From a virus (lineage: Duplodnaviria; Caudoviricetes): 64,000 bases of DNA. Shown piece after piece: positions 2,631 through 58,301 of this stretch. How positions within the stretch are numbered: the first letter of the stretch is position 1; each line of letters starts with the position of its first letter. The stretch lies in the IMG/VR virus record IMGVR_UViG_3300033121_001619, positions 62,320 to 126,319 of that record; one strand, given 5' to 3'. The translations under genes were made by a program, and so were the position numbers. The notes under the pieces were generated by a model. The model had not been told where the DNA came from. It saw only the letters and a program-made list of their open reading frames with translations, and ran no database searches.

Positions 2631-2631
2631 C

Positions 2632-6472: not shown

Positions 6473-6482
6473 GTGAGCAATC

Positions 6483-10710: not shown

Positions 10711-11853
10711 ATGTCTCTCAATGCCGTCTTGCCAATTCTTCGCAAGAATCTCCAGATTGATACGTCAGTGGCTCAAGGACCAGAGCGGATCATGACCCTC
10801 GACTGGTTGAGCCACATGAGTCTGATCAAACCTAGGGATAGTTCCACAAGAGACGTGTACGAGAGAATCATGACTCTTTCTTCACGTGCCGAGAAAGAAT
10901 GCCCCCGCGCCGGCAGACATCTCATCGATCTCATCGTCAACGATGGGAGGTCTAGTCTTCCTAGACCACGTGTGATTCGAAATCGAAGTGATTTCGTCGC
11001 CATCGTGAGGGATCACGTTAGATCCTCACGATCTATCGACGTCATCATGCAAATACTCGATGAGTGCGATGACACGACCCGAATAATCATGCGACGGACT
11101 AGTGGAAGCCTGGTTCGAATCGAAACGGAATTGGGCTGCAGGATACAGGGAAACTCGATCACGTCGGACGTCATCGATGACGATGACACGTACGTTGCGT
11201 GCATCGATGGATTCATAGAGACGGTCGCCGAGATACATGACGTCCTGAGCTTCCTGTCTTCCGATGTTTCGGAAAGCGGTAGTCCAAAACCGTGTCTCAT
11301 TCTTGCGAGAGGCGCGTCTCAAGACGTAGCTTCGACTCTTCATGCCAACTTTTTGAATGGGCGTCTTCGGACCGTGTGCTTCATCATTGAGTGGAAACCT
11401 GAGACTGTCAACGGGCTGTCGGACGCATGCATCATTTCTGGCGCCGACATGATATCACTTCTCAGGGGAGACGTGGTATCGTCATTGACACCGACACGTT
11501 TGGGAAGAGTGGCTCACTGTAGGACGACACGCTCCGACGTTGTTTTGACCCCAAGCGATGATCGTCTAGGAATCGTGACGAAGAAGTCGTCGATCTTGGC
11601 CGAAGAGGCGTCAACTTTCGCTCAGGATCGATCATATGCTCTGTCGACTAGGAACATCGTCGTGGACATCCCAGATTCTCACACCCACGACGCCATGGCA
11701 TGCGACGTGGATTTCGGCATCAGATGCTTGCTAGCCGCCATGAGAGGAGACGTCGATCCTCTAGAATCTGCTCGCCGGCAATATGAGACGTATCGTTCGA
11801 TCATAGCGGGGTCCATTTACGTCGGTCAGACAGGTGTTACGTTCGATACATGA
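10711..11853 (+). CDS. Divergent, truncated GroEL/Cpn60-like chaperonin
   Basis: KPCLILARGASQDVASTLHAN and LSDACIISGADMIS...LGRV resemble the GroEL apical domain; no GDGTTT motif. Confidence 0.55.
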   Translation: MSLNAVLPILRKNLQIDTSVAQGPERIMTLDWLSHMSLIKPRDSSTRDVYERIMTLSSRAEKECPRAGRHLIDLIVNDGRSSLPRPRVIRNRSDFVAIVRDHVRSSRSIDVIMQILDECDDTTRIIMRRTSGSLVRIETELGCRIQGNSITSDVIDDDDTYVACIDGFIETVAEIHDVLSFLSSDVSESGSPKPCLILARGASQDVASTLHANFLNGRLRTVCFIIEWKPETVNGLSDACIISGADMISLLRGDVVSSLTPTRLGRVAHCRTTRSDVVLTPSDDRLGIVTKKSSILAEEASTFAQDRSYALSTRNIVVDIPDSHTHDAMACDVDFGIRCLLAAMRGDVDPLESARRQYETYRSIIAGSIYVGQTGVTFDT

Positions 11854-12074
11854 ACAAGATCGATACCACCACCAAGCAAGTCAAGGATGCATTCGAGTAC
11901 GCCAAGTCAAAGACGATATCGATGATCGTCAGCGCCGCACCGCCTCAGACCCCGGACGAGGAGAGGCGTCTCAAGACAGTGATCGATTGCGTCACTAGCG
12001 GAATCGACGAGGCGTTCCTAAAGACCGCACCATCACTCCAGAAGTCGTTTGCTGCGCTGCTCGCGGGGAAGTTA
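11850..12074 (+). CDS. Hypothetical protein (ends at TTA)
   Basis: In-frame TTA 12072-12074 lies 2 nt before the next ATG (12077); standard-code end 12104 overlaps the next gene. Confidence 0.65.
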
Positions 12075-12549: not shown

Positions 12550-12783
12550 ATGTCGAAGACAGTCACGAAGAAGCAACTCGAAGACTTGAACAACGACTCA
12601 CTAGCTGCTAGAGAAGTGGTTCGTGAGATCATGAATTTCGGCGTAAATGAGCGTCAGAAAGTCATAATCATCCAAAGCCTCGCCATGACGCTAGAGGACA
12701 ATGAACTCATGCGAGCTTTGCTTGATTGCATCTCTGACATTGCTGGAGACAAGGTCTTCATCTCGAAGATGTTTGGAGAATGA
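12550..12783 (+). CDS. Hypothetical protein
   Basis: GAGGTG RBS before ATG 12550; packed in operon. Confidence 0.65.
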   Translation: MSKTVTKKQLEDLNNDSLAAREVVREIMNFGVNERQKVIIIQSLAMTLEDNELMRALLDCISDIAGDKVFISKMFGE

Positions 12784-12784
12784 C

Positions 12785-13426
12785 ATGGGACGTCAATCAA
12801 ATTCCAGGCTATCGAATTCGTCTCGCCAAGATTCACGACATCCCAGTGCCGATGCCGAATTCGGAGGAATGGCTCTCTCTGCCGGCGATGCTAGCAGGAT
12901 CGTCGTCTTGCATGGCGAGGTCAACGAGACGTCTGTCTCGGTCGTTGTCGCCAATCTCTTGCATATGGCTTCGGTCGACTTGAGTCCCATCTACCTTGTC
13001 ATCTCGACGTACGGTGGATCTGTCGATGAGATGTTCACGTTGTACGACACCATCAAATTCCTCCCATGCCCAGTCCACACGATCGCTTTGGGAAAGGTCA
13101 TGTCAGCTGGAGTGTTGCTGTTGGCTTCTGGGACGAAGGGTAAACGCATGATCGGAAAGTCTGCGAGGATCATGATACACCCGGTTTCGGGCGGAGCGAC
13201 GGGAAATGTGTTTCAGGTCGTTGCAGAAGCCGACGAACACGTCAGACTCCAGGACCAAATGGCGGACGCGATCGCCAATGAGACGAAGATGACACGTCAG
13301 AAGGTCAGGAAGATCATGTCGACCGGTCACGACGTCTACATCACGCCCGATGACGCTGTGAAGTACGGCATCGTGGACAAAATCATCGGAGCTTCCGTCA
13401 GGGACGTCATGAAAAGTTCGGAGTTA
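12785..13426 (+). CDS. clpP: ClpP-family protease proteolytic subunit (ends at TTA; standard-code TAG at 13432)
   Basis: YLVISTYGGSV, GKVMSAG (catalytic Ser), IMIHP (His), AVKYGIVDKII. Confidence 0.9.
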
Positions 13427-13445: not shown

Positions 13446-15074
13446 ATGCCACGTCATGACTATCGACCCTTCTTTCCGTTCGATGACGTGCGTTCGGAGC
13501 AGGATGAGGCGATAAGATTTGCAATCGATGCATTCGAGTCTGGGAAGAAGTACGTAGTTCTCGAGCTTCCGACCGGGATTGGAAAATCAGCCATAGGACT
13601 CACGGTAGCACGCTACATGAATCAGCACGGAGACGACGTGCTTGATGCGGAAGGTCTACCTGTTCAGCGCACGTCATACGTGCTGACAACACAAAAGATA
13701 CTCCAGGATCAGTATGTCAAGGATTTCGGAGAGGCGTCCGGAAGAGACGTCCTGAGATCCATCAAGTCATCGTCGAATTATTCGTGTGGATTCTACTCAG
13801 GATCGACGTGTGCTGACTCGCGAAGACTCATGCGACTCATGTCAAAGGAAGTCGCAGGAACAGAATTCGAGAGACACTGTAAGTCATCGAAATGCCCGTA
13901 CGCGTCTGCCAAGGCAGAGTTCGAGGCGTCTCTGGTGTCGTTGACGAATTTTCCGTTCTTCCTCGCTAGCAAGAATCTGTCTACACGCTCAACGCTGGTG
14001 ATCGATGAGTGTCACAATGCTGAGTCGGAATTGGCTAAATTCGTGGAAGTCTCCTTTTCGGAGAGATTCGCGAAGGACATACTGAAGTGCAAGGTCCCGA
14101 AGATAGACTCGCAGCAAGCAGCCTTCGATTGGGTGTGTGCTTCTTATAAGCGTGCGCTTCTCAAGCATCAAAAGTCGATCAATGAGCGTCTGAAGTCAGG
14201 AGATCGTGGAGAGAACTCCAGACAAGCCGAGATGCTGGAGAAGCACGTGGAGAAAGTCCTGAAGTTCATCCAGATATACGATGAATCTAACTGGGTGATG
14301 AACGTCGTGTACCCGAAAGATGGAGCCAAGAGAGGATTTCGACGCTTCGAATTCAAGCCGGTCGACGTGTCCCACTTCGGTGGAGAACTTTTCGGGAACG
14401 CGGGAAGGATTCTAATGATGTCTGCCACAATAGTGGACAAGGACGTCTTTTGTCGATCGATTGGAATTCCCGTTGACGACGCGGCCTACCTGAGGCTAGC
14501 TTCCCCTTTCTCCGTCGAGAATCGTCCCGTCCTCTTCATGCCCGTGGGATCGATGTCGAAATCGAATATCGACAGAACGCTTCCGAAGATGGTCGAGACC
14601 ATAAAAGAGATCTTGGCGATCCACCCCGACTCAAAGGGAATCATACACACGGCCAATTACAGGATAGCCAAGCACATCCAAGACTCGATACCGTCGGATC
14701 GATTCGTCTTCCACGAAGCTAGCAACAGAGAGGAAGCTCTCAAGTTTCACCTTGCGTCGAAGGATCCGACGGTCATAGTGTCTCCCTCGATGATGGAGGG
14801 AGTCGACTTGTCAGACGACGCGTCACGTTTTCAAGTGATCTGCAAGATACCGTTCCCGTATTTGGGAGACCTCATGGTGAAGCGGCGCATGGAGAGGGAT
14901 TCAACGTGGTATCCTTACGTCACCGCGAAATCGATCATTCAGTCACTCGGAAGATCCATCAGGAACAAGGACGACCACGCGATGTCGTACATCCTCGACA
15001 GCGACTGGACCAACTTCTACGCCAGGAATGAGAGAATGTTCACTGACGACTTTCGTTTGGCACTTCACAGTTTA
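13446..15074 (+). CDS. DinG/Rad3-like SF2 helicase (ends at TTA; standard-code TGA at 15083)
   Basis: ELPTGIGKS, IDECH, MSAT, EGVDL, QSLGRSIR; Cys cluster compatible with Fe-S. Confidence 0.9.
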
Positions 15075-15121
15075 CTGCGGTGACGAACCACGTAGTATCT
15101 CGTCCACGAGGTGACACACAG

Positions 15122-25340: not shown

Positions 25341-27313
25341 CGCAAGGATTCAATACAAAACCCCTCGGTAGCACCTCATCGGGCGTCAAGTCTCAACCGT
25401 CCAAGACGAAATCTTCGTCATCGGTCGCTGGAGTCTCCAAGACGGGAGTGACCGAGTCGTCTCCCATAGACTACGTCGGGACACTTTCGCCCACCAAGAG
25501 CGAGCAATCTGACCCATCCAGGTCCATCGATCTGATCAACATACCCGAGATCAAGTCGATACTGTGCACATTCACGTACAACCACTTCACACGTGACGAG
25601 AGGATAACACCTCCTAGAACTGTGTTCAGTGGAGGTGAGGAGAAACCTCGAGACAAGATAGCGCGATACGTGACGGTGTCGTGGCAGCCTCCTGCTAGAA
25701 AGTCGATGGGATCCTCAACGACGAAGTCGAGGATTGGTACGATATACGAGAACAGGGACGTAATCGTATCAGAAGACGATTCGTTGAACCCGGATTACGT
25801 CGATCACACGTATTCAGACGATGAAGCAATAACGCGTGCCGCGACCGATCTCGAGCTATACGACAAGATGGTGGGTAGAGGCAACGAAAGTCTGACGTCC
25901 ATGGCGGTCGATCGTTTGACCTCCCTTGGGTCTCATGCCGGTGAGAGAGACGTCGCAAAGCTGGATCGATTGTCGAAAACTCTCATGAGAGTCATCGATG
26001 ATCCTCAGGAAAATCTCGGTCTGACGGTGACACCAAGCGACCCCGCCAGAGTCCTAGAATCCGGCGACGACGACGTCACGCTTCACGTCAAGGTCCACGG
26101 ATCCGTCGTCTCGGACGTCTTCGCCAATTCCCACCTGAAGTCGTCCGACTCTTCGTTGGCTTCAATCAGGAGATCTTCGTCGAGAGTCAGATCTGGTACG
26201 TCACGTCCTGAGAGACAAGCCTTGAGCGTAGTGGAGATACTCACTTCTCAGGCAGAGAAGGAGAGGCTAACTCGCCCTGTCGAAATGATCGGTTACATCG
26301 TGTCTCGCTACGTTCAGACGCGCAACGGGTTCGTACCGGACGACGTCTTCTACGTCGAGGATCCATCAACGACGTCGATCATCGATCCTGGCGTCATGTA
26401 CGGGAAGACATACTTGTATGCCGTTCGAGTCGTGTTTGCCGTGGAGATGTTGGCACGCGATGGTGATCGGGTGGTACCAGCGTGCGTGTATGTCTCGTCT
26501 CGCTCCGTGACGAAAGTAATGAAGACCGAGGAGTCCACGCCGCCCCCGGAACCGACGTCGCCCAGATTCACTTACGACTTCATCGATAGACGTCTGACGA
26601 TCCACTGGGACATGCCCGTGAATCCCCAAGACGACGTCAAGCAATTCCAGGTCTTTCGACGAAAGACGATCGGAGAGCCTTTCGAACTCATCTGTCAGTA
26701 TTGCTTCGACGACACAATCGTCTCGGGCGATGCATCGCGTGCACTCACGGGCGAGAGAGTCGATGGCAACTCGTCGACCATGACCGACGAAGAGAGATCC
26801 CATGTGAAATACTCGCCAGTCCCAGTCTTCTCGCACACGGACGACGATTTCTATGTCGATCCTGAGACGCGGGAGTCGTCGAGGTACATCTACGCAATCG
26901 CTAGTGTGGATGCCCACGGTCTGATATCGAATTACTCCGCGCAGGTCGAGGTGTCGTACGATCAGTTCTCCAATCGCTTGACGTCTAAAGTGGTGGCGGA
27001 CTCCGGATCTCCAAGACAGTACCCTAACATGACGCTTGCTTTGGATGCCTTCAAGGACGCCGTCTTCATCGATGGTCCCGGATCTCGAAGGATGGACGTC
27101 TACATGGCACCTGACTTCTTGAAAGTCAAGGATCCTGCGAGGGGAGACGACATACAGGTCGTCGCCGGATCATCGCCCGATAGACCAGCTAGTTTCTACG
27201 TGTTTCAGATGATCAATCTCGACAACCAGAAGACGCAAATCTTGGAGGTCGAGATCAAGGATACCCACCGCCGCACGTCTCCTGTGAAATTGGGAGCCCC
27301 GCTGGATAGGTAG
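25337..27313 (+). CDS. Putative virion protein with FN3-like domains
   Basis: IIDPGVMYGKTYLYAVR, PPPEP, YIYAIASVDAHGLISNYS. Confidence 0.65.
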   Translation: MTQGFNTKPLGSTSSGVKSQPSKTKSSSSVAGVSKTGVTESSPIDYVGTLSPTKSEQSDPSRSIDLINIPEIKSILCTFTYNHFTRDERITPPRTVFSGGEEKPRDKIARYVTVSWQPPARKSMGSSTTKSRIGTIYENRDVIVSEDDSLNPDYVDHTYSDDEAITRAATDLELYDKMVGRGNESLTSMAVDRLTSLGSHAGERDVAKLDRLSKTLMRVIDDPQENLGLTVTPSDPARVLESGDDDVTLHVKVHGSVVSDVFANSHLKSSDSSLASIRRSSSRVRSGTSRPERQALSVVEILTSQAEKERLTRPVEMIGYIVSRYVQTRNGFVPDDVFYVEDPSTTSIIDPGVMYGKTYLYAVRVVFAVEMLARDGDRVVPACVYVSSRSVTKVMKTEESTPPPEPTSPRFTYDFIDRRLTIHWDMPVNPQDDVKQFQVFRRKTIGEPFELICQYCFDDTIVSGDASRALTGERVDGNSSTMTDEERSHVKYSPVPVFSHTDDDFYVDPETRESSRYIYAIASVDAHGLISNYSAQVEVSYDQFSNRLTSKVVADSGSPRQYPNMTLALDAFKDAVFIDGPGSRRMDVYMAPDFLKVKDPARGDDIQVVAGSSPDRPASFYVFQMINLDNQKTQILEVEIKDTHRRTSPVKLGAPLDR

Positions 27314-27327
27314 ACTGGAGGAAAGAC

Positions 27328-28071
27328 ATGGGATTTCTAGACAACTCGACGAACAACCTCATCATTGACGCAGTCCTGACGGATTATGGTCGTCAGCTCT
27401 TGGCTCAGGCGAACGGATCTTTCAACGTCAAGTACTACGCATTCGGTGACGATGAGGTCGATTACCGTCTGATCAAGCGATATGGGAGGACGGTCGGCAA
27501 GGAGAAGATCGAGAAGAACACTCCGATCCTCGAGGGCATCACGAACCCAGCTGTCGCCTTGAAGTACAAGCTTGTCGGTCGTGAGACGTCGGGAGAGACG
27601 TCGGCGGCATTCATGCCAATCCTTCAGACGACATCGACGCCAGCTCTGGTCAAGAACACCCAGTCGTCCTACACGGTGACGGTCGATCTCTACTACAACA
27701 ACTCGACGGGAGCCGCAGTACCAGTAGAACTCATCCAGCCCGTGTACAAGATAGCTGTGTCCGATAGGTTCTTCACCATAACGGATTCCGGGATGGGTAG
27801 GATAACAGCTCCTGCAGCTGGATCGTCGATGATAAATGCGGGAGATCCGAACAGGACGGTCACGTACACGTACACCGTGACGAACAATTCCACATCGATA
27901 TCTTTCGTCGTCACCGCCAAGAACATCGACAACACGACGCTGTCGGTGTATGGGAAGAGGATCAACTCCACTTCGTCGACCAGAGAGATCACAAGCTACA
28001 TCACGGTCACGGGGGAGAGACATGGATGCACCATCAACATACCCGTGACTTACAGGGCTTCTCTCACCTTA
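27328..28071 (+). CDS. Putative tail/baseplate structural protein (TTA-TAG at end)
   Basis: MGFLDN...DAVLTDYGRQLLA...FGDDEVDY; GGAGGA RBS; ends ACC TTA TAG. Confidence 0.7.
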
Positions 28072-28086
28072 TAGGATTGGAATCAC

Positions 28087-29361
28087 ATGTCGACCCAAAA
28101 GCAGCTACTTCCATCCGACAAGAAGGTGACTCGAACGTTCTTGACGCAGCTCATAGACGTCATCCAGGAGGACGTATCGTCGTCAGCTTCGCGCAGGAAG
28201 TATCAGTCGTTCGTGACTGGAGGCATCGGACCCGGGGTGACGTCGAGTCTGTTTCAGACCGTATACGACCAAGATTTCACCCTACAGACTGCCAACCCGG
28301 TCTTCGACATAACGTTCGGTCTCGCGCCACCCGACGTCAACGTCGATGGTATAGCCGCAACGACATCGACGGCTGTGGACGACGGTGGCAAGTATCTTTA
28401 TCCGAGCAGCTCTCTCATGATGAGAGAGAAGACGGACATTTACGGTCAATTCTCACAGATTCTCCTCGGAGACAGGGGAGAGACTTTCAAACTGCCAGTC
28501 GATCCAACGTTCACGACGTCTCAGACGACGACCGACATCGATGCCGCACTGTTCATCGCCTTCAAGCGTCTCTTCTCGCGCGATCAGATCAAGCGTGAGA
28601 CCTTCGCGATGAAGTTCTATCAGACCGCTTCCTACGTCAGCACCATCGCCGGACAGGACACGCCTCCGGCAGCCGATTCCAGCGGAGTGACGAACATCTA
28701 CCGGACTTCGACGACAGGCTCGGCGATCTACACCGACATAGGATCTTCGGATTCTCGCTTCTTCAGCGTGGGTGGACAGTACGGATACCTCGTCAACGCT
28801 GCCAACACGTCGAACGCCGTCGGCCTGATCTACTACGATCATGGCATCGTCGTCCTCGACATCGAGAAGGTCACGTCAGGATCTCAGTTCATATCGGGAA
28901 CCATCTCTGCCATGAACTCCCTGGGACAGACGGTCCTCGGAGGCGCTGGGACCGAGACAGCATACACGGCGAAGGTCGTCCCAGATCTCTTGACGTCCGG
29001 ATCGATCGACGACGTGATCGATCACTTCAGCTACGCTCGATTCGGAAGCGGCACTCAGACGGCGTTCACGTTCCAGAACTCGACGTACATCAACTCGTCA
29101 CTGATCTTCTGCAACGCCCTGCCAGACGATTTCAATTACTCTTCGAATCCCACGTACACCGAGGAGAGCGGAGACTTCAAGGGTAGACTGACGATATACG
29201 ATCCCGCCCTTCCAGAGGAGTCTCAGGAGCCTTTTGCCTTCATCACCACGATCGGCCTGTATGACAACACGGGAGGGTTGGTGGCTGTGGCGAAACTCAG
29301 CCGGCCCGTGGAAAAGAATCCTGGGCGAAACCTTTCATTTAGGGTCCGGACTGACTATTTA
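28087..29361 (+). CDS. Putative tail/baseplate structural protein (ends at TTA)
   Basis: C-terminal ITTIGLYD...VAKLSRPVEK...FRVRTDY, then TTA overlapping the next ATG (TTATG). Confidence 0.7.
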
Positions 29362-31835
29362 TGTCAGTCATACGTGTGACATCAGACGACGTGCAGCACA
29401 CCACGGTGATCACCACACCGAGGCGTTACTACGCGTCTTCGTCACACGGAACGACGGGATCTGTTCTGGTGAGACCTAGGGCATCATCGTACGAGAAGTC
29501 GACCGATGCTTTCGAGGACAGACACGAGGATTCATCGTACGATTCTCTCTTGAGATCGACGCTGTCGAGAGCGAAGTACTTCAGGGCGTCGTCACGCAAC
29601 ATCTTCACGACGATGCAGACGTATGTGTCGGGGGTCAATGTCCTGAGCGAAAAGGACGACGTCGTGATGGACGTCACCCGATTCACCCCCGGCACCAGTT
29701 TCACGAAGTATTTCTTGCGCAAGGGTATCGTGAAGGACACGCTGATGCGTTATTATCGCACGGCATATCCTCAGGCCACGTGGGCCTACACGAATTCGAA
29801 CGCCCTGAATTTCTTCACGGCGTTCTCCGGATCGACTCAGCTAGTTCCTACGGGATCGGTCCTGCTCTATCCCAACGTCGTGACGTCATCAGCTCCGGAG
29901 CACGTGGGTTACGTCTCTGGATCCTACTGTCTTTCCGGAGCCTTCACTTTCGATCTACACGTGAATCCTCGCTACGAGGACGACGGGATAGACGCAGGAC
30001 ACTTCAAGGACGGGACAATCCTTCACCTGTCTTCGTCGTATGCTCTCTCCTTGGTGACTGGGTCTCACAAGGACGCTAGGGGATTCCCGCTAGGATTTCG
30101 CCTCAAGCTTCAGCTGAGTCACAGCGCCGGTCTGGCACCGTCGTCCACGAATCCCGGGTCGTATCCGCACGATCTCACGTTCCTGTCCGACGATAATTCT
30201 TTGACGAGGAATCGATGGCATCACGTCATCGTCAGATGGGGAACGTCACTCGTGGACGCTGGGACGGGGTCCTTCGTCATCGATGGTCGCCGCTCGGGAA
30301 ATTTCGTGATACCGTCGGGAACGATATCACCAAGACCGTTCGTGAATTCTCTCAATCCCGACGTCCTGTGTCTGGGAAACTTCTACGAGGGAACGAATTA
30401 CGGCACGTCTGCCCAAAGCATATTCTTCTCTCCAGACAACGCTACGCGAGACGGCGTCGACCAGCTGACGTCCGAGAACTCCGTCGAGGATCCTGTCAAC
30501 TATCGATTCAATCATCCGCTCAAGGCCGAACTGCACGACGTCCTCATTCGACGTCATTATCTCACCGACAGTGAGATCGTCGCCTCTGGTTCCACGGGTC
30601 ACGGACGATCCGTCAGGGACCAGATGGACTTCGCCTTCTACGTTCCACCGTTCTTCGTCCAAGAGGGACCGATCTTGCGGTGGGTCGGTGACCGAGGCGG
30701 TGTGCTGCAAACACCGTTCTTCGAGGTGGATGGTACCACGGACGACCCGTTCAACGTGGCCATGTCGTTCGGGGTCGGCGGTCACATGATCAACCTGGAG
30801 AATTTCGTGAAGGACTTCTCGACAGGTAGGTTTCCTCGTCTATTTCGACTCACGGGATCGACAATCGATCACACGACCGATCTCCTCGATGCCAACGACG
30901 TGATCTATTCCGATCCCGGCGTCGTGAAGAGGAACTTGTCCATTTTGCCGTGCGACGACGGGACGTTTGATCCGTGTTACGAGCTTCTCGACGACGAGAA
31001 CTACACCAACAAATACGTGGACGCCGAGGGAGTGACGGACCTGAGTCTCATCAGCCTGTCTGGACTCTTGTCGACGTCATCCTTTCAGGCAGGAGGAATC
31101 CACGCGGAGTCGCCTGATGACTACGTCGAATTCCTCTACGGACCGTCTCCGGAGAAACCGGGTCTCGAGCCCGGGAAGTCGTTCTTGAAGTACATGAGTC
31201 TCCTGACAGCGTCCATAGGATCGGACGGTCAGATCGATCGTGGAGTTCAGCAGGGTGCCCCTCTCACGATTTATCAGCGTACGCAAGACTCCTCGTCGAA
31301 TCAAGTCACGTTCTTCAACGTGTCAAACATCTTCTACGGACGAAGGATCCTGCCCGGATCCGTCGTGTTGCGTGACTCATCGATGACAGGTAGCTCAGGA
31401 GTCGTGTCAATCACATTGAGAGACGACGCGATGGGAAGCCTCTATCGGGCAGACTCCGACACTCCCCATCACATCAAGAACACCGTTGGGAACGTCTTCT
31501 ACGACGAGGGAATAATCGTCGTCAAGAGTCCTCACTTGAATTTCTTTGGCAAGGATGGCTTCGAGCTCGAATTCAAGGGTGTACAGCACATCAATGTCAC
31601 ACGCTATGAGATCGTCGCACCTTCTGGCATGCTCAATTCCTCGTCCAATCCCACGCATCCAGGCTGGGATCTCCGACCATCGTCCAATCCGATCGACACG
31701 GAACCCTTCGTATACATCAGCGGCATCAATCTCCACGACTCCAACATGAATGTCGTCGCTCGTGTCAGACTGGCTCAGCCGGTCATGAAGAGAGAGGGAG
31801 ATCGTCTTCTCTTCCGCGTGGCCATGGATTCGTTA
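29361..31835 (+). CDS. Putative tail/baseplate protein with LamG/ConA-like domain (ends at TTA)
   Basis: RWHHVIVRW is LamG-like; C-terminus parallels the previous gene (RLAQPVMK...FRVAMDS), then TTATG overlap; standard-code end 32066. Confidence 0.7.
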
Positions 31836-32233
31836 TGTCGACTCGCAGGAGACGACGAACAAAGCGAAGATACCATCGCGGCGATCACGTCTCGACCAAG
31901 ACCGGTCTCACTTGCAGGTATCGAAGCGGCTGGGAGAAATCCTACATGGATCACTTGGACTCCGATCCCAGGGTCGTCGACTGGCTCTACGAGGCCCTAT
32001 CCATCGAGTACGTGTCCAACAAACGAACGGGCAAGATTCGTCGCTATTTCCCGGACTTCGTGGTGAGATACGTCGATGGACGGGTCGTGATCGTGGAAGT
32101 GAAGCCGTCACGAAAGGTCGGCAAGGCTGTCAACCTAAAGAAAGCCAATGCTGCTCGAACGTGGTGCGGTGACAACGGTTTTGACTACGTCATATTGACG
32201 GAGCACGAACTGGTGTCAATGGGCCTAATCTAG
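31835..32233 (+). CDS. TnsA N-terminal-like / T4 gp4-like head completion nuclease
   Basis: YRSGWE...RRYFPDF...IVEVKP (PD-(D/E)xK). Confidence 0.8.
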   Translation: MSTRRRRRTKRRYHRGDHVSTKTGLTCRYRSGWEKSYMDHLDSDPRVVDWLYEALSIEYVSNKRTGKIRRYFPDFVVRYVDGRVVIVEVKPSRKVGKAVNLKKANAARTWCGDNGFDYVILTEHELVSMGLI

Positions 32234-32265
32234 TTCGATTTGTCTCGGTCCTATGTAGTGTCACC

Positions 32266-32802
32266 ATGCCGGCAGCTACGACGTCCGACGCCGAACGAAA
32301 ATCCTTGGCCCTGTATGCTCCCAAGACGTTCTACATGGGCCAGAAGATGTACGTGTTGTACGACTGCAAGATGTTGATCGACTACTTCGAAGTAGGCGAA
32401 GCCGACGTCCAGGACGTCATCTATGGAATGATAGCCGTCGATGAGAACGGTAGTTGTCCAATAGTCAGGTCGTCAGCAGCCAGAAAAGGTTACGGGCCAC
32501 TTCTCTACGACATAGTGATGTGTGTGGAGGGTTGCCTGATACCCGATAGGAAATCCGTGTCTCCTAGCGCTAGAAGAGTTTGGGATTCGTACTCGAAACG
32601 TCCGGACGTGGAGAGACGATCGTTGAAGTCAGGAGACGCGTCGAACGATCCTCTCGATTATTCGTACTCGTTGAAGGGACATCCCAATTTCGACGCGCTC
32701 CTGAGAAATCACTCTCGATGTCTCTCGTCGCTGGACATCGATGAGACCGAGATCGAGAGACTCGCCGAGGAGTACTTCACTACACGACTGGACGTCGGCT
32801 GA
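32266..32802 (+). CDS. Hypothetical protein, possibly GNAT-like
   Basis: ARKGYGPLLY resembles the acetyl-CoA binding motif; SVSPSARRVW. Confidence 0.55.
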   Translation: MPAATTSDAERKSLALYAPKTFYMGQKMYVLYDCKMLIDYFEVGEADVQDVIYGMIAVDENGSCPIVRSSAARKGYGPLLYDIVMCVEGCLIPDRKSVSPSARRVWDSYSKRPDVERRSLKSGDASNDPLDYSYSLKGHPNFDALLRNHSRCLSSLDIDETEIERLAEEYFTTRLDVG

Positions 32803-32820
32803 CGTCGTACAATCTCGATC

Positions 32821-38808: not shown

Positions 38809-39192
38809 ATGAATAACGTAGACATCAATGCGCTCGGTGAGGCGATGGACACGACTTGGGGGAGATCCTCGACTCCCGTGGTGTCCGACCGATCCGTGAA
38901 GTTCAAGTTCGCGGGTGACGATAGGGTCTCCGTCACTTTCTCCATGCTCGTCAACTTCTCCTCGGAACGGGAGATGATACAGACGAAGAAGGCGTGCATG
39001 GAGGAATCCAGCACCGTCATCAACGAGTACGTCAAGTCGGTCAAGGGGTCCTACAAGGACAGGACCGGAGAGACCCTGAAGTTCAAGGAAGTGTCGTCGA
39101 ACGACTCGATCGAGATCGTCTCCTTCAACGTCCACAATCCGAAGAGGACTGGGCTCTTGCGGAGGGTCGTCACGTACGAGGTGTCGACTTGA
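38809..39192 (+). CDS. Hypothetical protein upstream of terminase
   Basis: 127 aa ORF, GAGGT RBS, upstream TACTTA motif. Confidence 0.7.
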   Translation: MNNVDINALGEAMDTTWGRSSTPVVSDRSVKFKFAGDDRVSVTFSMLVNFSSEREMIQTKKACMEESSTVINEYVKSVKGSYKDRTGETLKFKEVSSNDSIEIVSFNVHNPKRTGLLRRVVTYEVST

Positions 39193-40778
39193 ACGACACG
39201 TCTCGGGCTGCCCGCGTCGCGGAGATAGTCAAGTGCGGTAAGGATCCCGTGTACTTCATGAAGAAGTACTGCAAGATCCAGCACCAGCTTCGCGGCATGA
39301 TACCGTTCGAGACGTACCCGTTCCAGGACGATTGCGTGAAGCAATTCCAGGAGAATCGCTTCAACATAGTCCTCAAGTCCAGACAGTTGGGCCTATCGAC
39401 CGTCACGGCCGCCTACGCACTCTGGTTCGCGCTGTTCAAGAAGGACAAGAACATCCTGGTCATCGCGACGAAGATGAAGACGGCCATGAACTTCATCAAG
39501 AAGGTCCACGTCATGCTCGACAACCTACCGACGTGGATACTCCTCGCCAAGTTCGAGAAGACGAAGCAGAGCGCCCGATTCGACAACGGATCCTCGATCA
39601 CGGCCATACCGACGTCTCCCGACGCGGGAAGGTCGGAGGCCCTCGCCCTCCTCATCATCGACGAGGCAGCGTGGATCAAGGACTTCGACGAGATCTGGAC
39701 CGGTCTCAAGCCCACCATGTCGACCGGCGGATCGGCCATCCTCCTGTCGACGCCCAACGGCGTCGGTGGACAATACCATCAGATCTGGGTCGACGCCGAG
39801 GCGAGGCTCAACGAATTCAACCCGATACGTCTCCCGTGGAACGTCCATCCTGAGCACGACGAGGCATGGTTCATCAAGGAATCGAAGAGCCTCGACAAGA
39901 AGAAGATCGCCCAGGAGTTCGAGTGCAATTTCAACGCCAGCGGAGACACGTTCCTGTCACAAGAGGTACTGGGCCGGCTCAGGGAGGCCATCGAGCAACC
40001 GTCCAGGAGAGAGGGAAACCAGTCCCAGATCTGGATCTGGAAGGATCCTCGACCAGGTGCTCGATACATCCTCACGGCCGACGTGTCTCGCGGGGACTCC
40101 GACGACTTCTCGACATTTCACGTCGTCGACTACGACACGGCCGAGATGGTATGCGAGTTCATGGGAAGGTCACCGCCGGACAAATTGGCGGACCTGATGA
40201 TCGAGTACGGGACGAGGTACAACGGGGCACTCCTGGCTCCGGAGCTCAACTCGTTCGGCTACTTCACGTCGTCAAGGCTGAGGGACTCCGGTTACTCTCC
40301 CCTCTACTACGCTAGCTGTCGTGACGATCACTTCACGTATAAGCCATCCAATCCCAAGGAGAACCCGGGCTTCACGACCAACCTCAAGACCCGACCCCAG
40401 ATGCTGGGCTCCCTGGAGGAGATGACTCGAAACGGTCAATTCCTGTCCAGGTCGCAACGCCTGTTCGAGCAACTACAGACGTTCACCTGGCACGGCAACA
40501 AGGCGACGGCCATGGTGGGATACCACGACGACCTCGTGATGAGCGCCGCGGCGGCGTGTTGGCTGTCCAGGCCCACTCGATCGGTCGAGAGGGTCGACGA
40601 CGTCGAGGCAACGACGGCCATGCTGAGGGCGACGTCCAAGGAGACGCGCTCGTCGGAGGGACTACCGCTCAGCGTCACCGGTCTGGGGACGGACAAGGTG
40701 ATCATGACCACCGACAGGCGGATGGGACGCCCACTCGGTCCGGGTATGTCCATGGACTATAGATGGCTTCTCACGTTA
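39189..40778 (+). CDS. terL: Terminase large subunit, T4 gp17-like (ends at TTA)
   Basis: KSRQLGLST (Walker A), IIDEAA (Walker B), STPNG, nuclease ADVSRG and HDDLVMS; probable TTG start overlapping the upstream TGA; ends DYRWLLT-TTA. Confidence 0.93.
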
Positions 40779-40821: not shown

Positions 40822-41196
40822 ATGAAGAGGAAGATCGACATCAACCGCGTCAGGAAGATCGTCAAGGAGGAGCTGAGTGCCCTCCACGAGGGCGAGCAAC
40901 ACAAGTTGGCCCTCGACCACGCCGACGCCGCGGTCAAGTGCTTGGACGCGCTGGAGAAGTACAAGGAGGTGGCGTCGGAGAAGGCCAAGGCGGAGTTCGG
41001 CGACGCCCTGGACAGGGTGGAGCAGATCCTCAACAGGATCGCGGAGTCGCCCCTGCAGTACGTCGACGCCGTCCCGACGGACGTCGAAGACTCCACGGAC
41101 GGCGACCTGCTCGACCCGGAACCCGCCTCGACTCCCGCTCCCGCCAAGTCAGACACCACTCGAGTCATCAAGCCGCAGGTTGTCAAGGGTAAGTTA
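40822..41196 (+). CDS. Small acidic head-region protein (ends at TTA)
   Basis: GGAGG RBS; leader RKIVKEELSALHE; in-frame TTA 41194 separates it from the portal ATG at 41227. Confidence 0.7.
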
Positions 41197-41226
41197 CGCG
41201 GTGTACCATCACCCCGAGGTGTGAGA

Positions 41227-44200
41227 ATGTCAAGCGGTAGGACTTCGAGGTCGCTGTTCCAGCGGCTCACGACCCTTTTCAGGTCGGGAAACGTCGCGAA
41301 GCAGAAGATCAGGACGCTCGACACGTCGGTCGCGTCGCCCGATAAGACGAAGAGCAGCGGCGCCATCATGTTCCAGAAGTCCGCGTCGCCGACGTACGCC
41401 AACATCACGGCGAACGCGTACAACCTCTCCGAGCGCCTGATGAGGTATCAGGATTTTTGCTTTGGGCGAGAGACTCTCGTGTACACGCTCGACGGTGTCT
41501 TTACGATCGAAGAACTGTCGAAGATGTATCCGAAGGGAGAACAGTTCTTCGTTTACTCTTACGATCACGAGAAGAAGACGCCCACGATCGGTACGGCTTT
41601 TTTCCCAAGAGTCGCAAACGGAGGTGCACCTTCGAAAGTCTGCAAGGTGACGTTTGACGACGGAGGTCACGTCTTCCTCACACCCGATCACAGAGTGATT
41701 CTACGTGATGGTACTGCCAAGGAGGTACGTGACCTTCGCGTAGGGGACAGTCTCATGCCGCTATACGTGAAAGACATCACGGGGCATGGATACAACTGGA
41801 TCTACATGCTTGGGAAGAAGACGAACTTCAAGAGCGGGTGGCTTCAGGAGCACGTATTTGTTGCGTCTCATTTCGATAGAGAGCCGCGCTCAGGTGAATG
41901 CGTTCATCACAAGGATTTCAACAGGAAGAACAATCATCCATCCAATCTCGTGGTGATGAATGAATCAGATCACCAAAAATATCACGCCCAGCTCAACAAC
42001 AAGAACAAGCGTGGAATACCGAATCAACGTCATTCTGATTGGATGCGTACCAACGGCAATCGACGACGTGACGTAACCTTTCAGTCGATCGTGTCGGCGT
42101 GTCTTGCTCAGGATACGTTGACGCTGGCAGACATCGTGAGTCACTTCGATACTGATGTCAATGCGATCAAATTGCGTCTCAAAGAAGCCGGATTTCGGAA
42201 TTGGGAAGACTTCGAGAGTAGATTCGATGAAGCTCAGAGAATCGCCACGCACGAAATCGTGGTGAAGGAGACGAGGACTCCCACGGTAGACGAAATCGTC
42301 GAGGTGGCAAAAGTCGCAGAGACTGTCGAAGAAGCTGCCAGTCGCCTATCGTGCACACGCAATGCCATTGGACGACGATTGCAATCGTTGGGTTACAAGA
42401 ATTGGACAGAGTACAAGACTGGAATCCCGTATTCAGGAAAGAAGCGCGGTCCCAAATACGACGGTCCGTCTTTTCAGGTCATCTGTTCCGAATATAAGCC
42501 CGGAATGACCAAGCTGGAATTGGCAGCTGCGTGCGGAACGTCACACAATAAGGTGATGACATGTATTCGTGCGAACGGCTATCACAATTACTCCGATTGG
42601 GTCAATTCATTCAATAACCACAAGGTCAGCTCGATCGAAGAGTGCGGAGAAGACGTCGTCTATACCGTGACTGTTGAAAAACATCACAACCTTGCTGTTG
42701 GTTCGATATCACCAAATGACGATGGTCGTCGCCCACACTCAATGATATTCTGTCATCAGTGCGAGATGGAGTATACGCCCGAGATAGCTAGCGCCCTCGA
42801 CATATACGCGGATGAGGCGTGTCTGTCGGGAGACTCCGTCATACCCCTCTTGAATGGGACGCGTCGAACCATCGCCGACCTATACGCAAACGATGCGAAG
42901 GATTTCTGGGTCTATTCCTACGACCTCGAGAGGAACGCGATCGTACCCGGGAAAGCCACTAGCGTCGTTCGAACGGGGACCAAGCAGCTGTTTCGAATCG
43001 AAATGGATGATGGGACTTTCGTCAGACTGACGGACAACCATCGAGTCCTGTTGAGTTCGGGTGAGTACGTCTTCGTCAGAGACCTGAGGGAGGACGACAG
43101 CATTCGTTCTCTGTACACCTCGACGTCGAGCAAGAAGGTCGGCGATAAGATTGACGGGTACGAAAAAGTCCTGACTAGCGAGGGCTGGAAGTTCACACAT
43201 CGTCTGATTGCCGAATTCGATGATCCGAATTCGTCGGGAATCGTTCATCACGTCGACTTCGACAAGCGCAACAACTCACCGGAGAACCTGAGGTTCATGA
43301 CGTGGAAGGATCACCTAGACCTTCACGGATCTGCCAACGTAGAGAGGTGGAAAGACGACTCCTACTCTCAAAAGATGCGCGACGTATTCCGCGATAGGGC
43401 AAAAAGGTTGCATATGCAACCTGGATTCACGCGACATCTCCTCGCCATGAGAGATGCGAAATTTTCATCGTACGACGCTGATGAACGTCGTCGTCTGTTT
43501 GCACGATCAGGTGCGCACAACGGCATGCATGGCAATGGTTGGAAGATTTCGGGCATCAAAAATGGGCGCTGGGATGAGAGATTCGTAAGAAGGGTGACAC
43601 GCGAACAGATCATCGAATGGATCGAATCGGGAAAATCCAAGCGTCAGGTGTGTGACGAATTGCCAATGCGCCACGACGACATGACGCGCCATCTAAGGCA
43701 GTATGGGATAAAGAAGTGGACGAAGAAAAATGTCATAGATCAGTCTGACGTCATGCAGAAGCTGGGTTCATGGAGAGGACGCCAGCCGTGTGGATTGGAT
43801 CTACGACGTCATTTGAAGAGGGCGTGCGCTGATATCGACATAGACGTCGACGTTGCATATCGTGCATTGAAACTAACGGGATATCGCAATTGGAGCGATT
43901 TTCTGGAGAGAACGAATCACAGGGTGAAATCCATCGTTCCGGACGGTGTCGAGGACGTGTACGATATCACTGTCGATCGTTGGCATAACTTCGCTGTGAC
44001 GGGAAGTCCCATTGCCGATTCCTTCGTGTTCGTTCACAACTGCTCAGTCGACGAGAAGGGCCAGGTGCTGCACGTCTACTCCGACAACCCGAAGATCAAG
44101 GACGCGCTCGAGCATCTCTTCTACGACAACCTGAACGTCGGATTCAACCTCCGGTCGTGGACTCGTAACACGGTCAAGTACGGCGACCTGTGTCTCTACA

Positions 44201-45762
44201 ACGACGTGTCGCCCGAGTACGGCGTCATCAACGCCGTCCCGATCCCCATCAACGAGATCGAGCGCGAGGAGAACTACGACCCCAACGATCCTCTCGCCCA
44301 TCGATTCAGGTGGGTGACCAACGGAAACAGGGTCCTGGAGAACTGGGAGGTGTCGCACTTCCGCCTCCTGGGCAACGACATGTTCCTGCCGTACGGCTCG
44401 TCGGTCATCGAGGCCGCGAGGCGCATCTGGAGGCAGCTCATCCTGGTCGAGGACGCCATGCTCGTCTACAGGATCGTCAGGGCTCCGGAGCGCAGGGTCT
44501 ACTACATCGACGTGGGCAACATACCTCCGGCCGACGTGGAGCTCTACATGGAGGAGCAGAAGAAGCGACTCCGATCGTCTCAAGTCGTCGATAGGACGTC
44601 GTCGAGGGTCGACCTGAGGTACAACCCGCTGTCGATCGACGAGGACATCTTCGTCCCCGTCAGGGGACAGGACACCGGGACGAAGATCGAGACGCTGGCC
44701 GGCGGACAGAACGCCGCGGCGGTCGAGGACGTCGCCTACATCCAGAAGAAGCTGTTCGCGGCCCTCAAGGTGCCACGGGCCTACCTGGGATACGACGAGA
44801 GCCTCAGCTCGAAGTCGACGTTGGCCCAGGAGGACATACGTTTTTCTCGCACCATCAACACCATCCAGCGCACGATGATAGCCGAGCTGAATAAACTGGC
44901 CATCATCCACCTGTACGTCCACGGGTTCGACGACGACGACCTCCAGAACTTCGTCCTCCGGATGTGCAACCCGTCGACCATAGCCCAGCAACAGAAGCTC
45001 GAGCTGTGGCGCGCCAAGTTCGAGTTGGCCGGTTCGGCCCCCGAGGGATACGCCAGCAAGGACTTCGTTCGAAAGGAGCTGTGGGGACTCAACGACGAGC
45101 AGTGCAAGATGATCGACGAGCAGCGTCTGAAGGAGAAGATGGTCGATGCTGCCATCGAAGGGGCCACGTCGGGAGAGTCCGAAGGCGGCGACATGGGCCT
45201 AGGCGACCTGGGAGGCGAAGAGACTGAGGAGCCCGCCGGTGGAGAGGAAGCAGGCGGAGAGGAGCTGACGGCCGGCGACGACGTCGACGAGAAGGACGGC
45301 AAGGACCTCCTGACCGCCGGCGACGACGTCGGAGACGACGACGAGATTCCCATCAAGTTCGACCTCGACGACGTCACGGTCCCCGTGAAGGCTCAGCGTC
45401 AGCTCGACAAGGCCCTGTACGATCGAGCCAGGATCAAGCACGGCGGACCTGCGAAGACTCACATGCCCGATTTCGCGAAGATGACGGGCGCCGGCAGCAA
45501 GCGTGACTCCGACCCGTTCGACAGCGAGTTCCTGTCGTCGTTCGCCAGGAATCAGTTGGGAGAGTCCGAGTCCAGGACGACTCACAGGACGTCGGTCAGC
45601 CTCGACACGGTGCACATGCTTCGTAAGATGGCCGAGTCGCCCAAGTTCGCCAAGAGTCCGGGCAGGTCGATCTCGTCTCCTCGCGTCATCGTCGAGGAGG
45701 TCGAGGACGTCCCTGATCAGCGAGAGTTCGACGAAGTCTACGTCATAGACGAGGACGAGTTA
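41227..45762 (+). CDS. Portal protein, T4 gp20-like, with two inteins (ends at TTA)
   Basis: PEIASALDIYADE, EDAMLVYRIVRAPERRVYYIDVGNIP, TKIETLAGG, KKLFAALKVP; GAGGTG RBS; about 670 aa after splicing. Confidence 0.93.
41458..42759 (+). mobile_element. Portal intein 1 (434 aa), HNH endonuclease, ends His-Gln
   Basis: Starts CFGRET; block B TPDHRV; HHKDFNRKNNHPSNL; block F VYTVTVEKHHNL; ends FCHQ|C. Confidence 0.9.
42820..44040 (+). mobile_element. Portal intein 2 (407 aa), HNH endonuclease
   Basis: Starts CLSGDS; TDNHRV; HHVDFDKRNNSPENL; VYDITVDRWHNF; ends VHN|C. Confidence 0.92.
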
Positions 45763-45811
45763 TGTATCCCAGGGACTCGTGAACCGAGTCCCATCGAGAG
45801 GAATGGTCGAG

Positions 45812-48888: not shown

Positions 48889-49131
48889 ATGAAGCTCACC
48901 GACAGACTCCTGAAGAAGATGATCGAAGAGGAGTTGACCAAGCTCACCGAGACCGATGAAGTCGACGCCGAGGCCGAGGAGGTCGAGGCGGGCGATGAGG
49001 CCTCGACCCTCGAGAAGAAGATCGACTTCATCAAGGCGCTCAAGATCGAGGAGGCACGCCTCAATAAGCGCAAGCGCAAGATCAACGAGGCGCTTCTCAA
49101 GCTGGGTGCTCGTGGAAGGAGCCGTAGATGA
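48889..49131 (+). CDS. Small head-region protein
   Basis: Leader MKLTDRLLKKMIEEELTKLTE. Confidence 0.7.
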   Translation: MKLTDRLLKKMIEEELTKLTETDEVDAEAEEVEAGDEASTLEKKIDFIKALKIEEARLNKRKRKINEALLKLGARGRSRR

Positions 49132-49730
49132 GCGGTCCTGGCAAGGGAAGGTACACGACGTACGTCCCGAAGGCCTCGGCGCGTAACGCTCGTCTCAGCA
49201 AGCTCTTCAACGAGCAGGCCGAGAACGACGCCGGCGTCCTGTACGGTGCTCCTGGGCAGACGAACAACTCGGACGCTGCCAAGGCGGCTGTCGCTCGAGC
49301 CGTCGCGCCTGTCGTGAACGGTGTGGGTGGTCTCATTCCGTCGGACGGACGTCAAGTCGGCGATCCGGACATGTTTCCGGCCGGCGTCAACTTGGCCTAT
49401 GGAGACGCCCCTGACGTGTCGAAGGTCGAGTGGAAGCAGAACTCCGACGCGATTCGCGTCAACATCTACGGCGACGCCGCGGTGGAGGCAGGAGGACCTG
49501 CCAACGCTTACTCTCCCGATCCCACTTCGCCTGGCGCGGGGCCTGCCGGATCGATCAACGTCGATCCGCTCTCCAAGGACGCCGATCCCGGGATATCGAT
49601 CGACGACATGAAGCCAGGATACATCCCGGGCGCCCCCGGCACCGGCACGACCAATCCCTCGGTGACCAGCAAGGGTCTGGGAACGTCACCTTTCGCGAAG
49701 GACTTGATTCCCGGCAAGTCGTCGGTCTTA
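49128..49730 (+). CDS. Gly/Pro-rich hypothetical virion protein (ends at TTA)
   Basis: TTA at 49728 is followed by the AGGAG RBS and ATG 49745 of the next gene. Confidence 0.7.
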
Positions 49731-55412: not shown

Positions 55413-56357
55413 ATGGTGAGGATGAAGATGAGCAGCCTCCGACGCATGATCGAGTCGGAGGTGAGGAGATCGCTTCGTGAGGACGCGAATCCCGCGAAGA
55501 TCAACGACATGCTCTACCCGAAACGCCTGAGGGCCGTGAAGGATCCTGAGGTGGCGAAGGCCCTCTCCTCCGGCGGGAAGGACGACGGCGTGGTCGACGA
55601 CGACACGGCCGGGACGGGTAGGACGTCGGCTGCCGCCAACACCTTGAAGGCCAGCCAGACGACGATGGACTTCCAGAAATTCGTCGCCATGTCCATCCTC
55701 ATGTTGACTCGACACGGAGCCTTCTCCAGTGGTCCTGGTGGTGACCTAGGCGCCATCGTGTCGTCCGACGGACACATCATGGACGGCCATCACCGCTGGG
55801 CCGCCACTCTCATGGTCGATCCCACCGCCGACGTGGGAGGCATCAAGGTCGACATCCCTGGAGAGAAACTGGTCGGAGTCCTGAACGTGTGGACGGTCGC
55901 GAAGGGTCAGAAGGGCAAACCTTCCACGGCGAACATGAGCGACCTCACGCCTGACGCCGTCGCCGACAAGTTCAAGGAGATGGCCACCAGCGGCATCAGC
56001 GGGATGGACTCGAAGGCCATCGCCGCCGGACTCAGCAAGAACGGATTCGAGTCGATCGACGCCGCCGCCGAGCACGTCAAGAAGAACTGGGAGTCCACGT
56101 CGAAGAACCGAGCGATCAAGGCGTGGATGCCCGAGAAGGTCGACATGCCGGCCATCGAGCCGGAGCAACTCGCCCAGGTCGCGAAGGACATCGCGTCGGG
56201 CGACATGGACATCAATCCTCCCTATTCCGACAAGGTGAAGTCCCTCCTGAAGATGTCGACGAAGAAGGAGAAGTCGCCCCCGGAGAACGCAGGGAGACGA
56301 ATCTCGGGCGATCCTCTCGTGGAACGCTGGCAGCGCCTGGCCGGAATCATCAAGTTA
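55413..56357 (+). CDS. ParB/Srx-like domain protein (ends at TTA)
   Basis: IVSSDGHIMDGHHRWAA; ends RWQRLAGIIK-TTA, matching the scaffold end RWGLLAGITK-TGA. Confidence 0.75.
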
Positions 56358-57406: not shown

Positions 57407-57784
57407 GGGGCATAAATGGCTTCGACGTCGTCGAAGATCGTAGGAGTGCAGGACCGGGTGCACGAGGGTCCCGGATGAAACCCATGTGAAACACGACCGA
57501 CGTCAGCAATGATTCGGCTCCTCTCGCCCTCGCGGCCTTAGGGACGGGTCCCGTCGACCTAGGAAAAGAATAGACGGAAGCAAGGATGTCACGTCTTGAC
57601 GTGAAGGGTGACGCATCATCGGGTGGGTGGTGATGCAACGGCCATGCGACACGAAGGTACGACCAGCCGACACGCGGTGAGAACCTTCTAGGGCGGACGA
57701 TCCCGATGAAAATCGTCCCAATCCTGTGAACGACTCCTACGATCGACGTCGGCGGACCCGGGTTCGATTCCCGGATGCTCCACC
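57407..57784 (+). ncRNA. ssrA: tmRNA
   Basis: 5' GGGGCAT...TTCGAC pairs with 3' ATGCTCC-ACC (G3:U Ala identity pair); T-arm CCGGG-TTCGATT-CCCGG; tag frame 57499-57540 reads DVSNDSAPLALAA then TTA. Confidence 0.93.
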
Positions 57785-57806
57785 GTCTATACTTAGGGTG
57801 AATAGC

Positions 57807-58070: not shown

Positions 58071-58301
58071 GTGAGCGACGGTCAACAGGTGGTCGACCTC
58101 ATGCGTCCGCTGAGGTCAGCCGTCGATGGTTTGGCACCCAACATCATAGACGTTTTCGTCTCAGATCCACCTAGCGCAGTAGAGGGAGGAATACCGAGAC
58201 GAATCGTACGTCATCACAAGTACGTCAACGTCGGGATACTCTCTAGGGAGCTTCAGGAGAAGATCCTAGCCGCCATTCACTTCAATTCGTCTGGTTTTTT
58301 A
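58071..58301 (+). CDS. Hypothetical protein (ends at TTA)
   Basis: In-frame TTA at 58299; standard-code end 58361 also gives a plausible ATGA overlap, so this end is less certain. Confidence 0.55.

Follow-up and report, generated by a model that had tools for sequence, protein, structure and literature searches.

The stretch studied here covers positions 62,320 to 126,319 of a single linear IMG/VR virus record of 126,319 bp and 55% GC (IMGVR_UViG_3300033121_001619); these 64,000 nucleotides (nt), the right half of the record, are called the window below. In this phage the triplet TTA (UUA in the message) very probably acts as a terminator of translation instead of coding for leucine, and it is used in this way beside TGA, TAG and TAA. 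Comparison with homologous genes showed that TTA is placed where the homologues have their stops. From this placement we infer that the peptide is released at UUA, that a factor brings the release about, and that neighbouring genes are coupled there. It also appears probable, with somewhat less confidence, that a release factor reads UUA as a true fourth stop codon in a bacterium-phage system that is common in wastewater.

Three consecutive genes of the window, for proteins of 247, 424 and 824 amino acids (aa), are at the centre of this reading (Table 1). As had been pointed out in an earlier note on this DNA, their open reading frames (ORFs, from 27328, 28087 and 29361) reach an in-frame TTA at 28069, 29359 and 31833, respectively. 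The letters read TTATAG at 28069-28074 and TTATG at both 29359-29363 and 31833-31837, so that the first TTA is directly backed by TAG and the A of the other two is shared with the next ATG, just as the note had described. At both TTATG sites the terminator of the upstream gene overlaps the downstream start codon; the geometry of coupling is present there, and the TGATG with which the note had compared these sites is likewise found on the minus strand (8136-8132). The word 'structural', which the note had used for these genes, does not suit the gene behind TTA 31833, which is TnsA/endonuclease-I-like. When the standard code (translation table 11) is applied, the ORF from 27328 runs on for a single codon to TAG, and the 824-aa ORF would overlap ORF 31835-32233 by 232 nt. 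Past TTA 31833 the codon-usage score is -0.40 in the frame of the extension and +0.26 in that of the endonuclease. The 424-aa and 824-aa proteins share a paralogous C-terminal domain, as had been noticed (BLASTP E 2e-8). Because the alignment reaches the penultimate residue of each (423 of 424 and 823 of 824), both paralogues meet TTA at the equivalent aligned place.

A database search with the 824-aa protein gave 1097 matches among 8000 scored candidates, and the 119 non-self homologues among those listed are almost all 805-857 aa long. Eighteen of these 119, picked across the identity range, were aligned. All 18 end one residue past a conserved Asp, which is the place of Ser-TTA in the window, and none has the 77-residue extension that the standard code would add. 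At the other end all 18 start with M-S/A-V/I/L-I/V/F, the first 4 to 7 residues being alike, so that ATG 29361 is conserved. ATG 31835 is the earliest start codon in its frame, and PHROG profiles align with the product from residue 24-26. Both ATG 29361 and ATG 31835 are the true starts.

Relatives at the DNA level were obtained with an alignment-based scan of IMG/VR, in which 303 were found and 80 loci were kept. Opposite TTA 31833, 79 of 79 homologous locus ORFs have a stop codon in the alignment (TGA 39, TAA 26, TAG 14); opposite TTA 29359, 59 of 69 have TGA, TAA or TAG. In the rest of the 69 homologues, nine form a subgroup with a true 10-residue extension and one is aligned differently. 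The alignment of the C-terminal domains with their homologues, which the earlier note had proposed, put a canonical stop at the codon of TTA 31833 in 18 of 18 proteins as well. Homologues that keep the residues after TTA, the counter-evidence envisaged in that note, amounted to 0 of the 18 aligned homologues and 0 of the 79 locus ORFs. The comparison supports the note's view that TTA stands in a stop's place at the coupled junctions; termination and re-initiation would take place there. The post-TTA extension of the 824-aa gene is shared only by a near-identical strain variant on another contig (P0001), which has three residue differences and has lost the downstream TGA, so that the length of the extension differs. 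A tblastn search of 50,697 GenBank phage records with the 824-aa protein gave no match, and single-protein scans of viral contigs and genome contigs with it found no relatives; the alignment-based scan alone succeeded.

The junction behind the 824-aa gene was compared in the same loci. An endonuclease homologue is present in 76 of the 80, mostly directly 3' of the 824-aa homologue, and is not an occasional mobile insert. In six loci (L004, L006, L032, L041, L042 and L057, with four distinct sequences) the orthologous junction reads TGATG, with ATG in the endonuclease frame. Therefore, the TTATG of the window is the TGATG arrangement with TTA replacing the stop. In other listed loci the endonuclease ATG lies mostly a few to ~30 nt past the stop, and in some several hundred nt further.

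The large terminase gene, the small gene behind it and the portal gene behave in a similar manner. At the large terminase, 0 of 31 homologues align beyond the residue before TTA 40776, and those of L031, L071, L049 and L060 stop exactly there. The 124-aa gene behind it has its counterpart in a separate ORF of 103-169 aa between terminase and portal in relatives, and the copy of L027 ends at most one residue from the TTA-aligned place; TTA 41194 is followed by a GAGGTG motif and ATG 41227. The portal of L017 ends at most two residues from the aligned TTA 45760, and the coding frame switches after that TTA.

The distribution of TTA was then followed over the whole record. In a confident set of 115 genes (38,857 codons), picked by codon-usage score, 15 of the 27 in-frame TTAs lie within the last 35 codons. 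This tail fraction of 0.56 (binomial P = 9e-9) compares with at most 0.14 for each of the 60 other sense codons. In a greedy ORF set TTA occurs 38 times in frame vs 77 and 182 times in the remaining two frames. There is no confident internal TTA in the 115 genes, since eight apparent cases in gene bodies are gene ends or sites upstream of the true start. They are accounted for by the 77-codon extension of the 824-aa gene, the 138-codon extension of the terminase, the boundary between the small gene and the portal, a TTA-GAC-ATG boundary before the NADAR gene (whose Pfam domain begins just after), and sites upstream of true starts, including two in the leader before ATG 54575. This leader contains a GC-rich hairpin followed by a T run, similar to an intrinsic terminator (54474-54505), after the gene ending at 54425; because of its position, the ORF called at 54464 truly starts at ATG 54575.

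A gene model with four stops gives 134 genes over the 126 kb, of which 86 end on TGA, 22 on TTA, 13 on TAA and 13 on TAG. Overlaps of 1 nt occur at 2 of the 22 TTA ends, 6 of the 86 TGA ends and 0 of the 13 TAA ends, and ATGA-type overlaps number 35. A genome-wide count of junctions had been suggested in the earlier note. The bare TTATG motif is not enriched (30 in the window vs 40 +/- 6 expected), and it is frame and placement that are unusual. Once TTA is taken as a stop, the genes tile 27-46 kb without gaps or overlaps. Directly past TTA 31833, 40776, 45760 and others the codon-usage score falls in the TTA frame and climbs in another. The ends of Pfam domains agree: DUF5131 ends at 237 with TTA at 262, the NADAR domain ends 7 residues ahead of the next TTA, and in the GNAT proteins TTA comes after the end of the domain. 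Canonical in-frame stops lie no closer behind TTA than behind TGA, TAA or TAG (Mann-Whitney p 0.56), so TTA does not rely on back-up stops. Two TTA ends run in frame into the next gene, and as back-up stops are not enriched, the signal must be efficient. Two relatives were used as controls (L080 and L049, 52% and 64% GC). TTA was found in their gene bodies in 0 of 5395 and 0 of 7797 codons, and 0 terminal TTAs were found in 31 long ORFs; in relatives of lower GC, leucine is freely encoded by TTA. Because GC-rich relatives avoid TTA too, its avoidance in gene bodies is ordinary, and what sets this phage apart is its terminal TTAs. A pair of convergent genes was also seen to share one triplet (20517-20519 of the genome): the plus-strand gene 19614-20519 has it as a final TTA, and the minus-strand gene 20517-21257 as a final TAA.

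Independent evidence comes from an RNA. The phage encodes a transfer-messenger RNA (tmRNA), which matches the covariance model over its full length (model positions 1-374) with 64.1 bits vs a cut-off of 47 (E 1e-22). A G3-U pair was read in the sequence of its acceptor stem, and a tRNA-Thr gene lies directly 3' of it. The frame of the tag peptide, DVSNDSAPLALAA, has the conserved ...APLALAA ending and is closed by TTA; the tag of L095, for comparison, is ANDNGTAPLALVA. In an alignment with the four closest of six related phage records that contain a tmRNA above the cut-off, the tag is closed by TTA in the window and by TGA in four of four orthologues. The tag frame of a tmRNA has to end in real termination, and here it is closed by a stop only if TTA is one. 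An overlapping TAG follows the tag in the +1 frame, and the peptide of that frame is unrelated. ARAGORN reads stop-ended tags in five of the six relatives' tmRNAs and calls no tmRNA in the window, because the tag frame there is closed by TTA and not by a canonical stop. When Rfam was run over the whole window at gathering score, the tmRNA was the sole match, and no frameshift or read-through element was obtained.

These TTAs are not an artefact. The strain variant on the other contig has the same TTA codons. In run X2, a DNA run from another study, all six differences listed over 27000-32061 lie elsewhere, and TTA 28069, 29359 and 31833 are kept. Contigs of the X4 RNA library keep TTA 28069 and 29359 and bridge the first TTATG unchanged. 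The runs also differ from the window in larger pieces, and these strain differences fall on gene junctions: X2 has 1496 additional letters between 29357 and 29358, where the 424-aa gene comes to its end immediately ahead of TTATG, and in X4 and X7 positions 32208-32265 are replaced by 1726 letters. The proposal that the true codon is TAA or TGA, changed by an assembly or base-calling error or restored by U-to-A editing of the mRNA, can appeal to the fact that TTA is one substitution away from both. It is hardly credible, however, as the same codons are read in an independent contig, in X2 and, at 28069 and 29359, in the RNA library, and as 13 genes still end in TAA.

Another possibility is that the standard code applies, that TTA is a rare leucine codon and that the genes continue to the next canonical stop and share 19, 232, 414 nt and so on with the genes beside them, with TTA surviving near C-termini alone, where slow decoding harms little. 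The frames are indeed open under table 11, relatives of similar GC avoid TTA too, and an alternative start at GTG 29376 would turn the first junction into an ordinary GTGA overlap. Against this, the extensions occur in no homologue and score as non-coding while another frame scores as coding; the small gene would be fused to the portal and the 76-aa ORF to NADAR; and the 824-aa gene has its conserved start at ATG 29361. Moreover, wherever a gene was tested, the homologues' stop is aligned with TTA and with no other sense codon, the extension past 31833 varies in length between strains, and the tmRNA tag would gain 10 residues, burying its conserved ending. We therefore consider leucine decoding very improbable.

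UUA might instead be an unassigned, 'hungry' codon, at which ribosomes stall until rescue, for example tag-adding trans-translation with the phage's own tmRNA, frees the peptide. The phage encodes a tmRNA and a ClpP-like protease, the only tRNAs of the contig are one with anticodon UUA and a tRNA-Thr(CGU), so that tRNA-Leu(UAA) is lacking in this contig of ~38% of the genome, and no release factor was found in it. The tag frame of the tmRNA itself ends on TTA, and this speaks for a stop read by a factor and against the rescue of stalled ribosomes, because the rescuing tmRNA would itself bring the ribosome to a halt on its message. tmRNA is also established to need an empty mRNA channel, which a UUA in mid-message does not offer without mRNA cleavage. 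In addition, tags of the ...ALAA type would be expected on 22 proteins, terminase and portal among them, and would lead to their proteolysis, and the TTATG and TTA-N2-ATG geometries are those of ordinary stop/start coupling. Rescue at a hungry codon thus seems unlikely. Frameshifting at TTA into an immediate stop seems unlikely, as most of the contexts read (TTAC, TTAG) contain no stop in the shifted frames. Recoding of a stop to sense (codes 4, 15 and others) finds no canonical stop interrupting genes, and long ORFs under table 11 span 98.9% of the genome. Regulation by TTA of the bldA type finds no confident gene with an internal TTA.

Termination at UUA would place the ends of the 247-, 424- and 824-aa proteins at 28068, 29358 and 31832, respectively. 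At TTATG the terminating ribosome would sit on the next ATG, as it does at TGATG or TAATG, and termination-reinitiation of the downstream gene may follow. The likeliest agent would be a class-I release factor that accepts U at the second codon position, supplied by the host or encoded in phage DNA outside the contig; combined with a lack of tRNA-Leu(UAA), this would make a codon-capture scenario. In a bolder form, the phage might bring the factor, or remove tRNA-Leu(UAA), so that TTA-containing genes of the host or of rivals would be truncated and the TTA-free genes of the phage spared.

Several observations weigh against termination at UUA or narrow the evidence for it. Neither a release-factor domain (PF00472, PF03462) nor a release-factor-like GGQ protein was found in the contig, which is ~38% of the genome. 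Outside the window, at 14662-14734 of the genome, lies a 73-nt tRNA gene with anticodon UUA, which reads UAA and is of the ochre-suppressor type. It was called by ARAGORN and by the Rfam tRNA model (51.8 bits), and no orthologue was found among 76 other tRNAs in the relatives' loci. Frame arithmetic gave no hint of read-through at the 13 TAA-ended genes; two have a next gene in the same frame, which is about chance. For a TTA-ended, tail-fibre-like gene of 801 aa outside the window, three distant homologues were found and the result is uninformative or contrary, since two of them (37-43% identity) run past TTA. TTA 28069, with TAG next to it, is uninformative, because the C-termini of homologues vary by 0-3 residues there and a Leu-stop cannot be separated from a stop-stop. 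Many of the 79 and 69 locus ORFs are near-duplicates across samples, so that these counts are not independent. Relatives of at least 50% GC are likewise without TTA in gene bodies. The confirmation by run contigs covers TTA 28069, 29359 and 31833 only, and RNA libraries such as X4 may contain DNA.

Coupling by stop/start overlaps such as ATGA, TGATG and TAATG is common to bacterial and phage operons. In this phage terminator and ATG also share one base, and the phage itself has 6 TGATG and 35 ATGA-type overlaps; the difference is that the terminator triplet is TTA. Recoding of stop codons is known in phages: TAG or TGA is translated into an amino acid, and suppressor tRNAs and release factors are encoded by the phage. 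The present phage resembles them in that table 11 miscalls its genes and that a suppressor-type tRNA (anticodon UUA) is present. The direction is opposite, however, being stop-to-sense there and sense-to-stop here. In Streptomyces the rare leucine codon TTA is used for regulation through bldA and lies inside coding regions. TTA is very rare at moderate to high GC in both cases, yet it is leucine inside genes there and internal TTA is absent here. The same codon is a stop in NCBI table 23 (Thraustochytrium mitochondria, label 'TTA=*'). This is an organellar code with a small gene set, in contrast to a double-stranded DNA phage of at least 126 kb that relies on bacterial-type ribosomes and still uses TGA, TAG and TAA. 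For green-algal mitochondria, one paper describes UCA and UCG as sense codons that vanish and then serve strictly as terminators, and relates it to an altered mtRF1a, the single release factor, and to the lack of a cognate tRNA (codon capture; PMC6821328). There the codons are others, the setting is an organelle and the release-factor changes are seen, whereas for the phage a codon-capture model is only proposed. A full-text literature search gave no phage or bacterial UUA stop among the matches listed, the relevant match being mitochondrial. Among these matches, sense-to-stop reassignment is so far known only in organelles.

Table 1. Positions (in the window) and ends of the genes, junctions and RNA discussed in the text. 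'Added' codons are those gained under table 11.
Feature	Position	Strand	End and remarks
74-aa gene	11850..12074	+	TTA; next ATG 2 nt downstream
ClpP-like protease gene	12701..13426	+	TTA, 2 codons ahead of TAG
Helicase gene	13446..15074	+	TTA, 3 codons ahead of TGA
247-aa virion-module gene	27328..28071	+	TTA 28069-28071; TAG 28072-28074 immediately after
424-aa gene	28087..29361	+	TTA 29359-29361; 6 codons added, to TGA 29377-29379
TTATG junction	29359..29363	+	Terminator of 424-aa gene shares A with ATG of 824-aa gene
824-aa gene	29361..31835	+	TTA 31833-31835; 77 codons added, to TGA 32064-32066
TTATG junction	31833..31837	+	Terminator of 824-aa gene shares A with ATG of endonuclease gene
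TnsA-N / endonuclease-I-like gene, 132 aa	31835..32233	+	Pfam PF08722, E 4.8e-17; PHROGs
Large terminase gene	38994..40778	+	TTA 40776-40778; Pfam Terminase_6N; 138 codons added
124-aa small gene	40822..41196	+	TTA 41194-41196; same frame as portal, no canonical stop between
Portal gene with inteins	41221..45762	+	TTA 45760-45762; Pfam Portal_T4, Intein_splicing; 30 codons added
200-aa gene	49128..49730	+	TTA, then AGGAGA motif and ATG of next gene
314-aa gene	55413..56357	+	TTA, 6 codons ahead of TGA
Phage tmRNA	57407..57785	+	Rfam RF00023; tag frame 57499-57537, closed by TTA 57538-57540
76-aa ORF	58071..58301	+	TTA; low confidence as a gene

The source phage is, by the Pfam content of its contig proteins, a distant T4-like myovirus: a Gp23-type capsid protein, a T4-type portal with inteins, a T4-type large terminase and an intein-bearing prohead protease were matched, as well as PhoH, ClpP and an SbcCD-like nuclease. 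CheckV estimates the contig at 38% of the genome. Relatives have genome sizes of up to 270-340 kb, and because of these sizes the contig is probably a piece of a jumbo phage. Scans for flanking sequence gave nothing usable for extending the contig, neither with the exonuclease gene at the left end against metagenome contigs nor with the 584-aa gene beside the capsid gene against viral contigs. The phage DNA (27300-33300) is present in 20 runs from 9 studies, mostly of wastewater and otherwise of freshwater and aquaculture, 4 of them RNA libraries; a run was counted as positive when it held at least half of the sampled words of 27300-33300.

Neither the 424-aa nor the 824-aa protein gave a function match in Pfam, PHROGs or a PDB sequence search. 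AlphaFold2 gave a weak model for the 424-aa protein (mean pLDDT, the predicted local distance difference test, 63.7), a Foldseek search with it gave no match at E 0.001 or better, and the best VIA-align Z of 4.0 allowed no fold to be assigned. In the regions 40822-48412 and 51531-53390, HNH or LAGLIDADG domains occur in the inteins of the portal and the prohead protease, and the Gp23 domain of a 619-aa capsid ORF begins only at residue 338, which suggests a large N-terminal insertion. Within the portal gene (43127-43921), 793 nt are skipped in a contig of run X13, which has 43 other letters instead; this fits an intein or HNH allele that is present or absent according to strain. Other genes were noticed in passing. 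A minus-strand block (412-10083 of the window, and 51-62 kb of the genome) encodes NeuB, a class-III aminotransferase, a cytidylyltransferase, a PIG-L deacetylase, GNAT, a formyltransferase, methyltransferases and at least 8 glycosyltransferases, and looks like a phage-borne pathway for a nonulosonic-acid glycan. A 109-aa protein (15080-15409) has a histone H1-like Hc1 domain (Pfam PF07432, E 1e-7), an unusual cargo for a phage. The ORF at 62828-64000, open-ended at the end of the contig, has collagen-like Gly-X-Y repeats, and the TTAs there lie in a different frame.

Termination at UUA, if true, would be the first sense-to-stop change of the code outside organelles, and one that reaches even the tag frame of a tmRNA. 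It would mean that the repertoire of stop codons can change even where translation is of the bacterial type. For annotation, gene callers that use table 11 would give wrong C-termini for about 1/6 of the genes in such phages, with false fusions (as of the small gene and the portal), false long overlaps and tmRNAs missed by finders. The phage would be a concrete case in which to study how reading of U at the second codon position by a release factor could arise, and such a case would show whether phages deploy sense-to-stop changes against their hosts or competitors.

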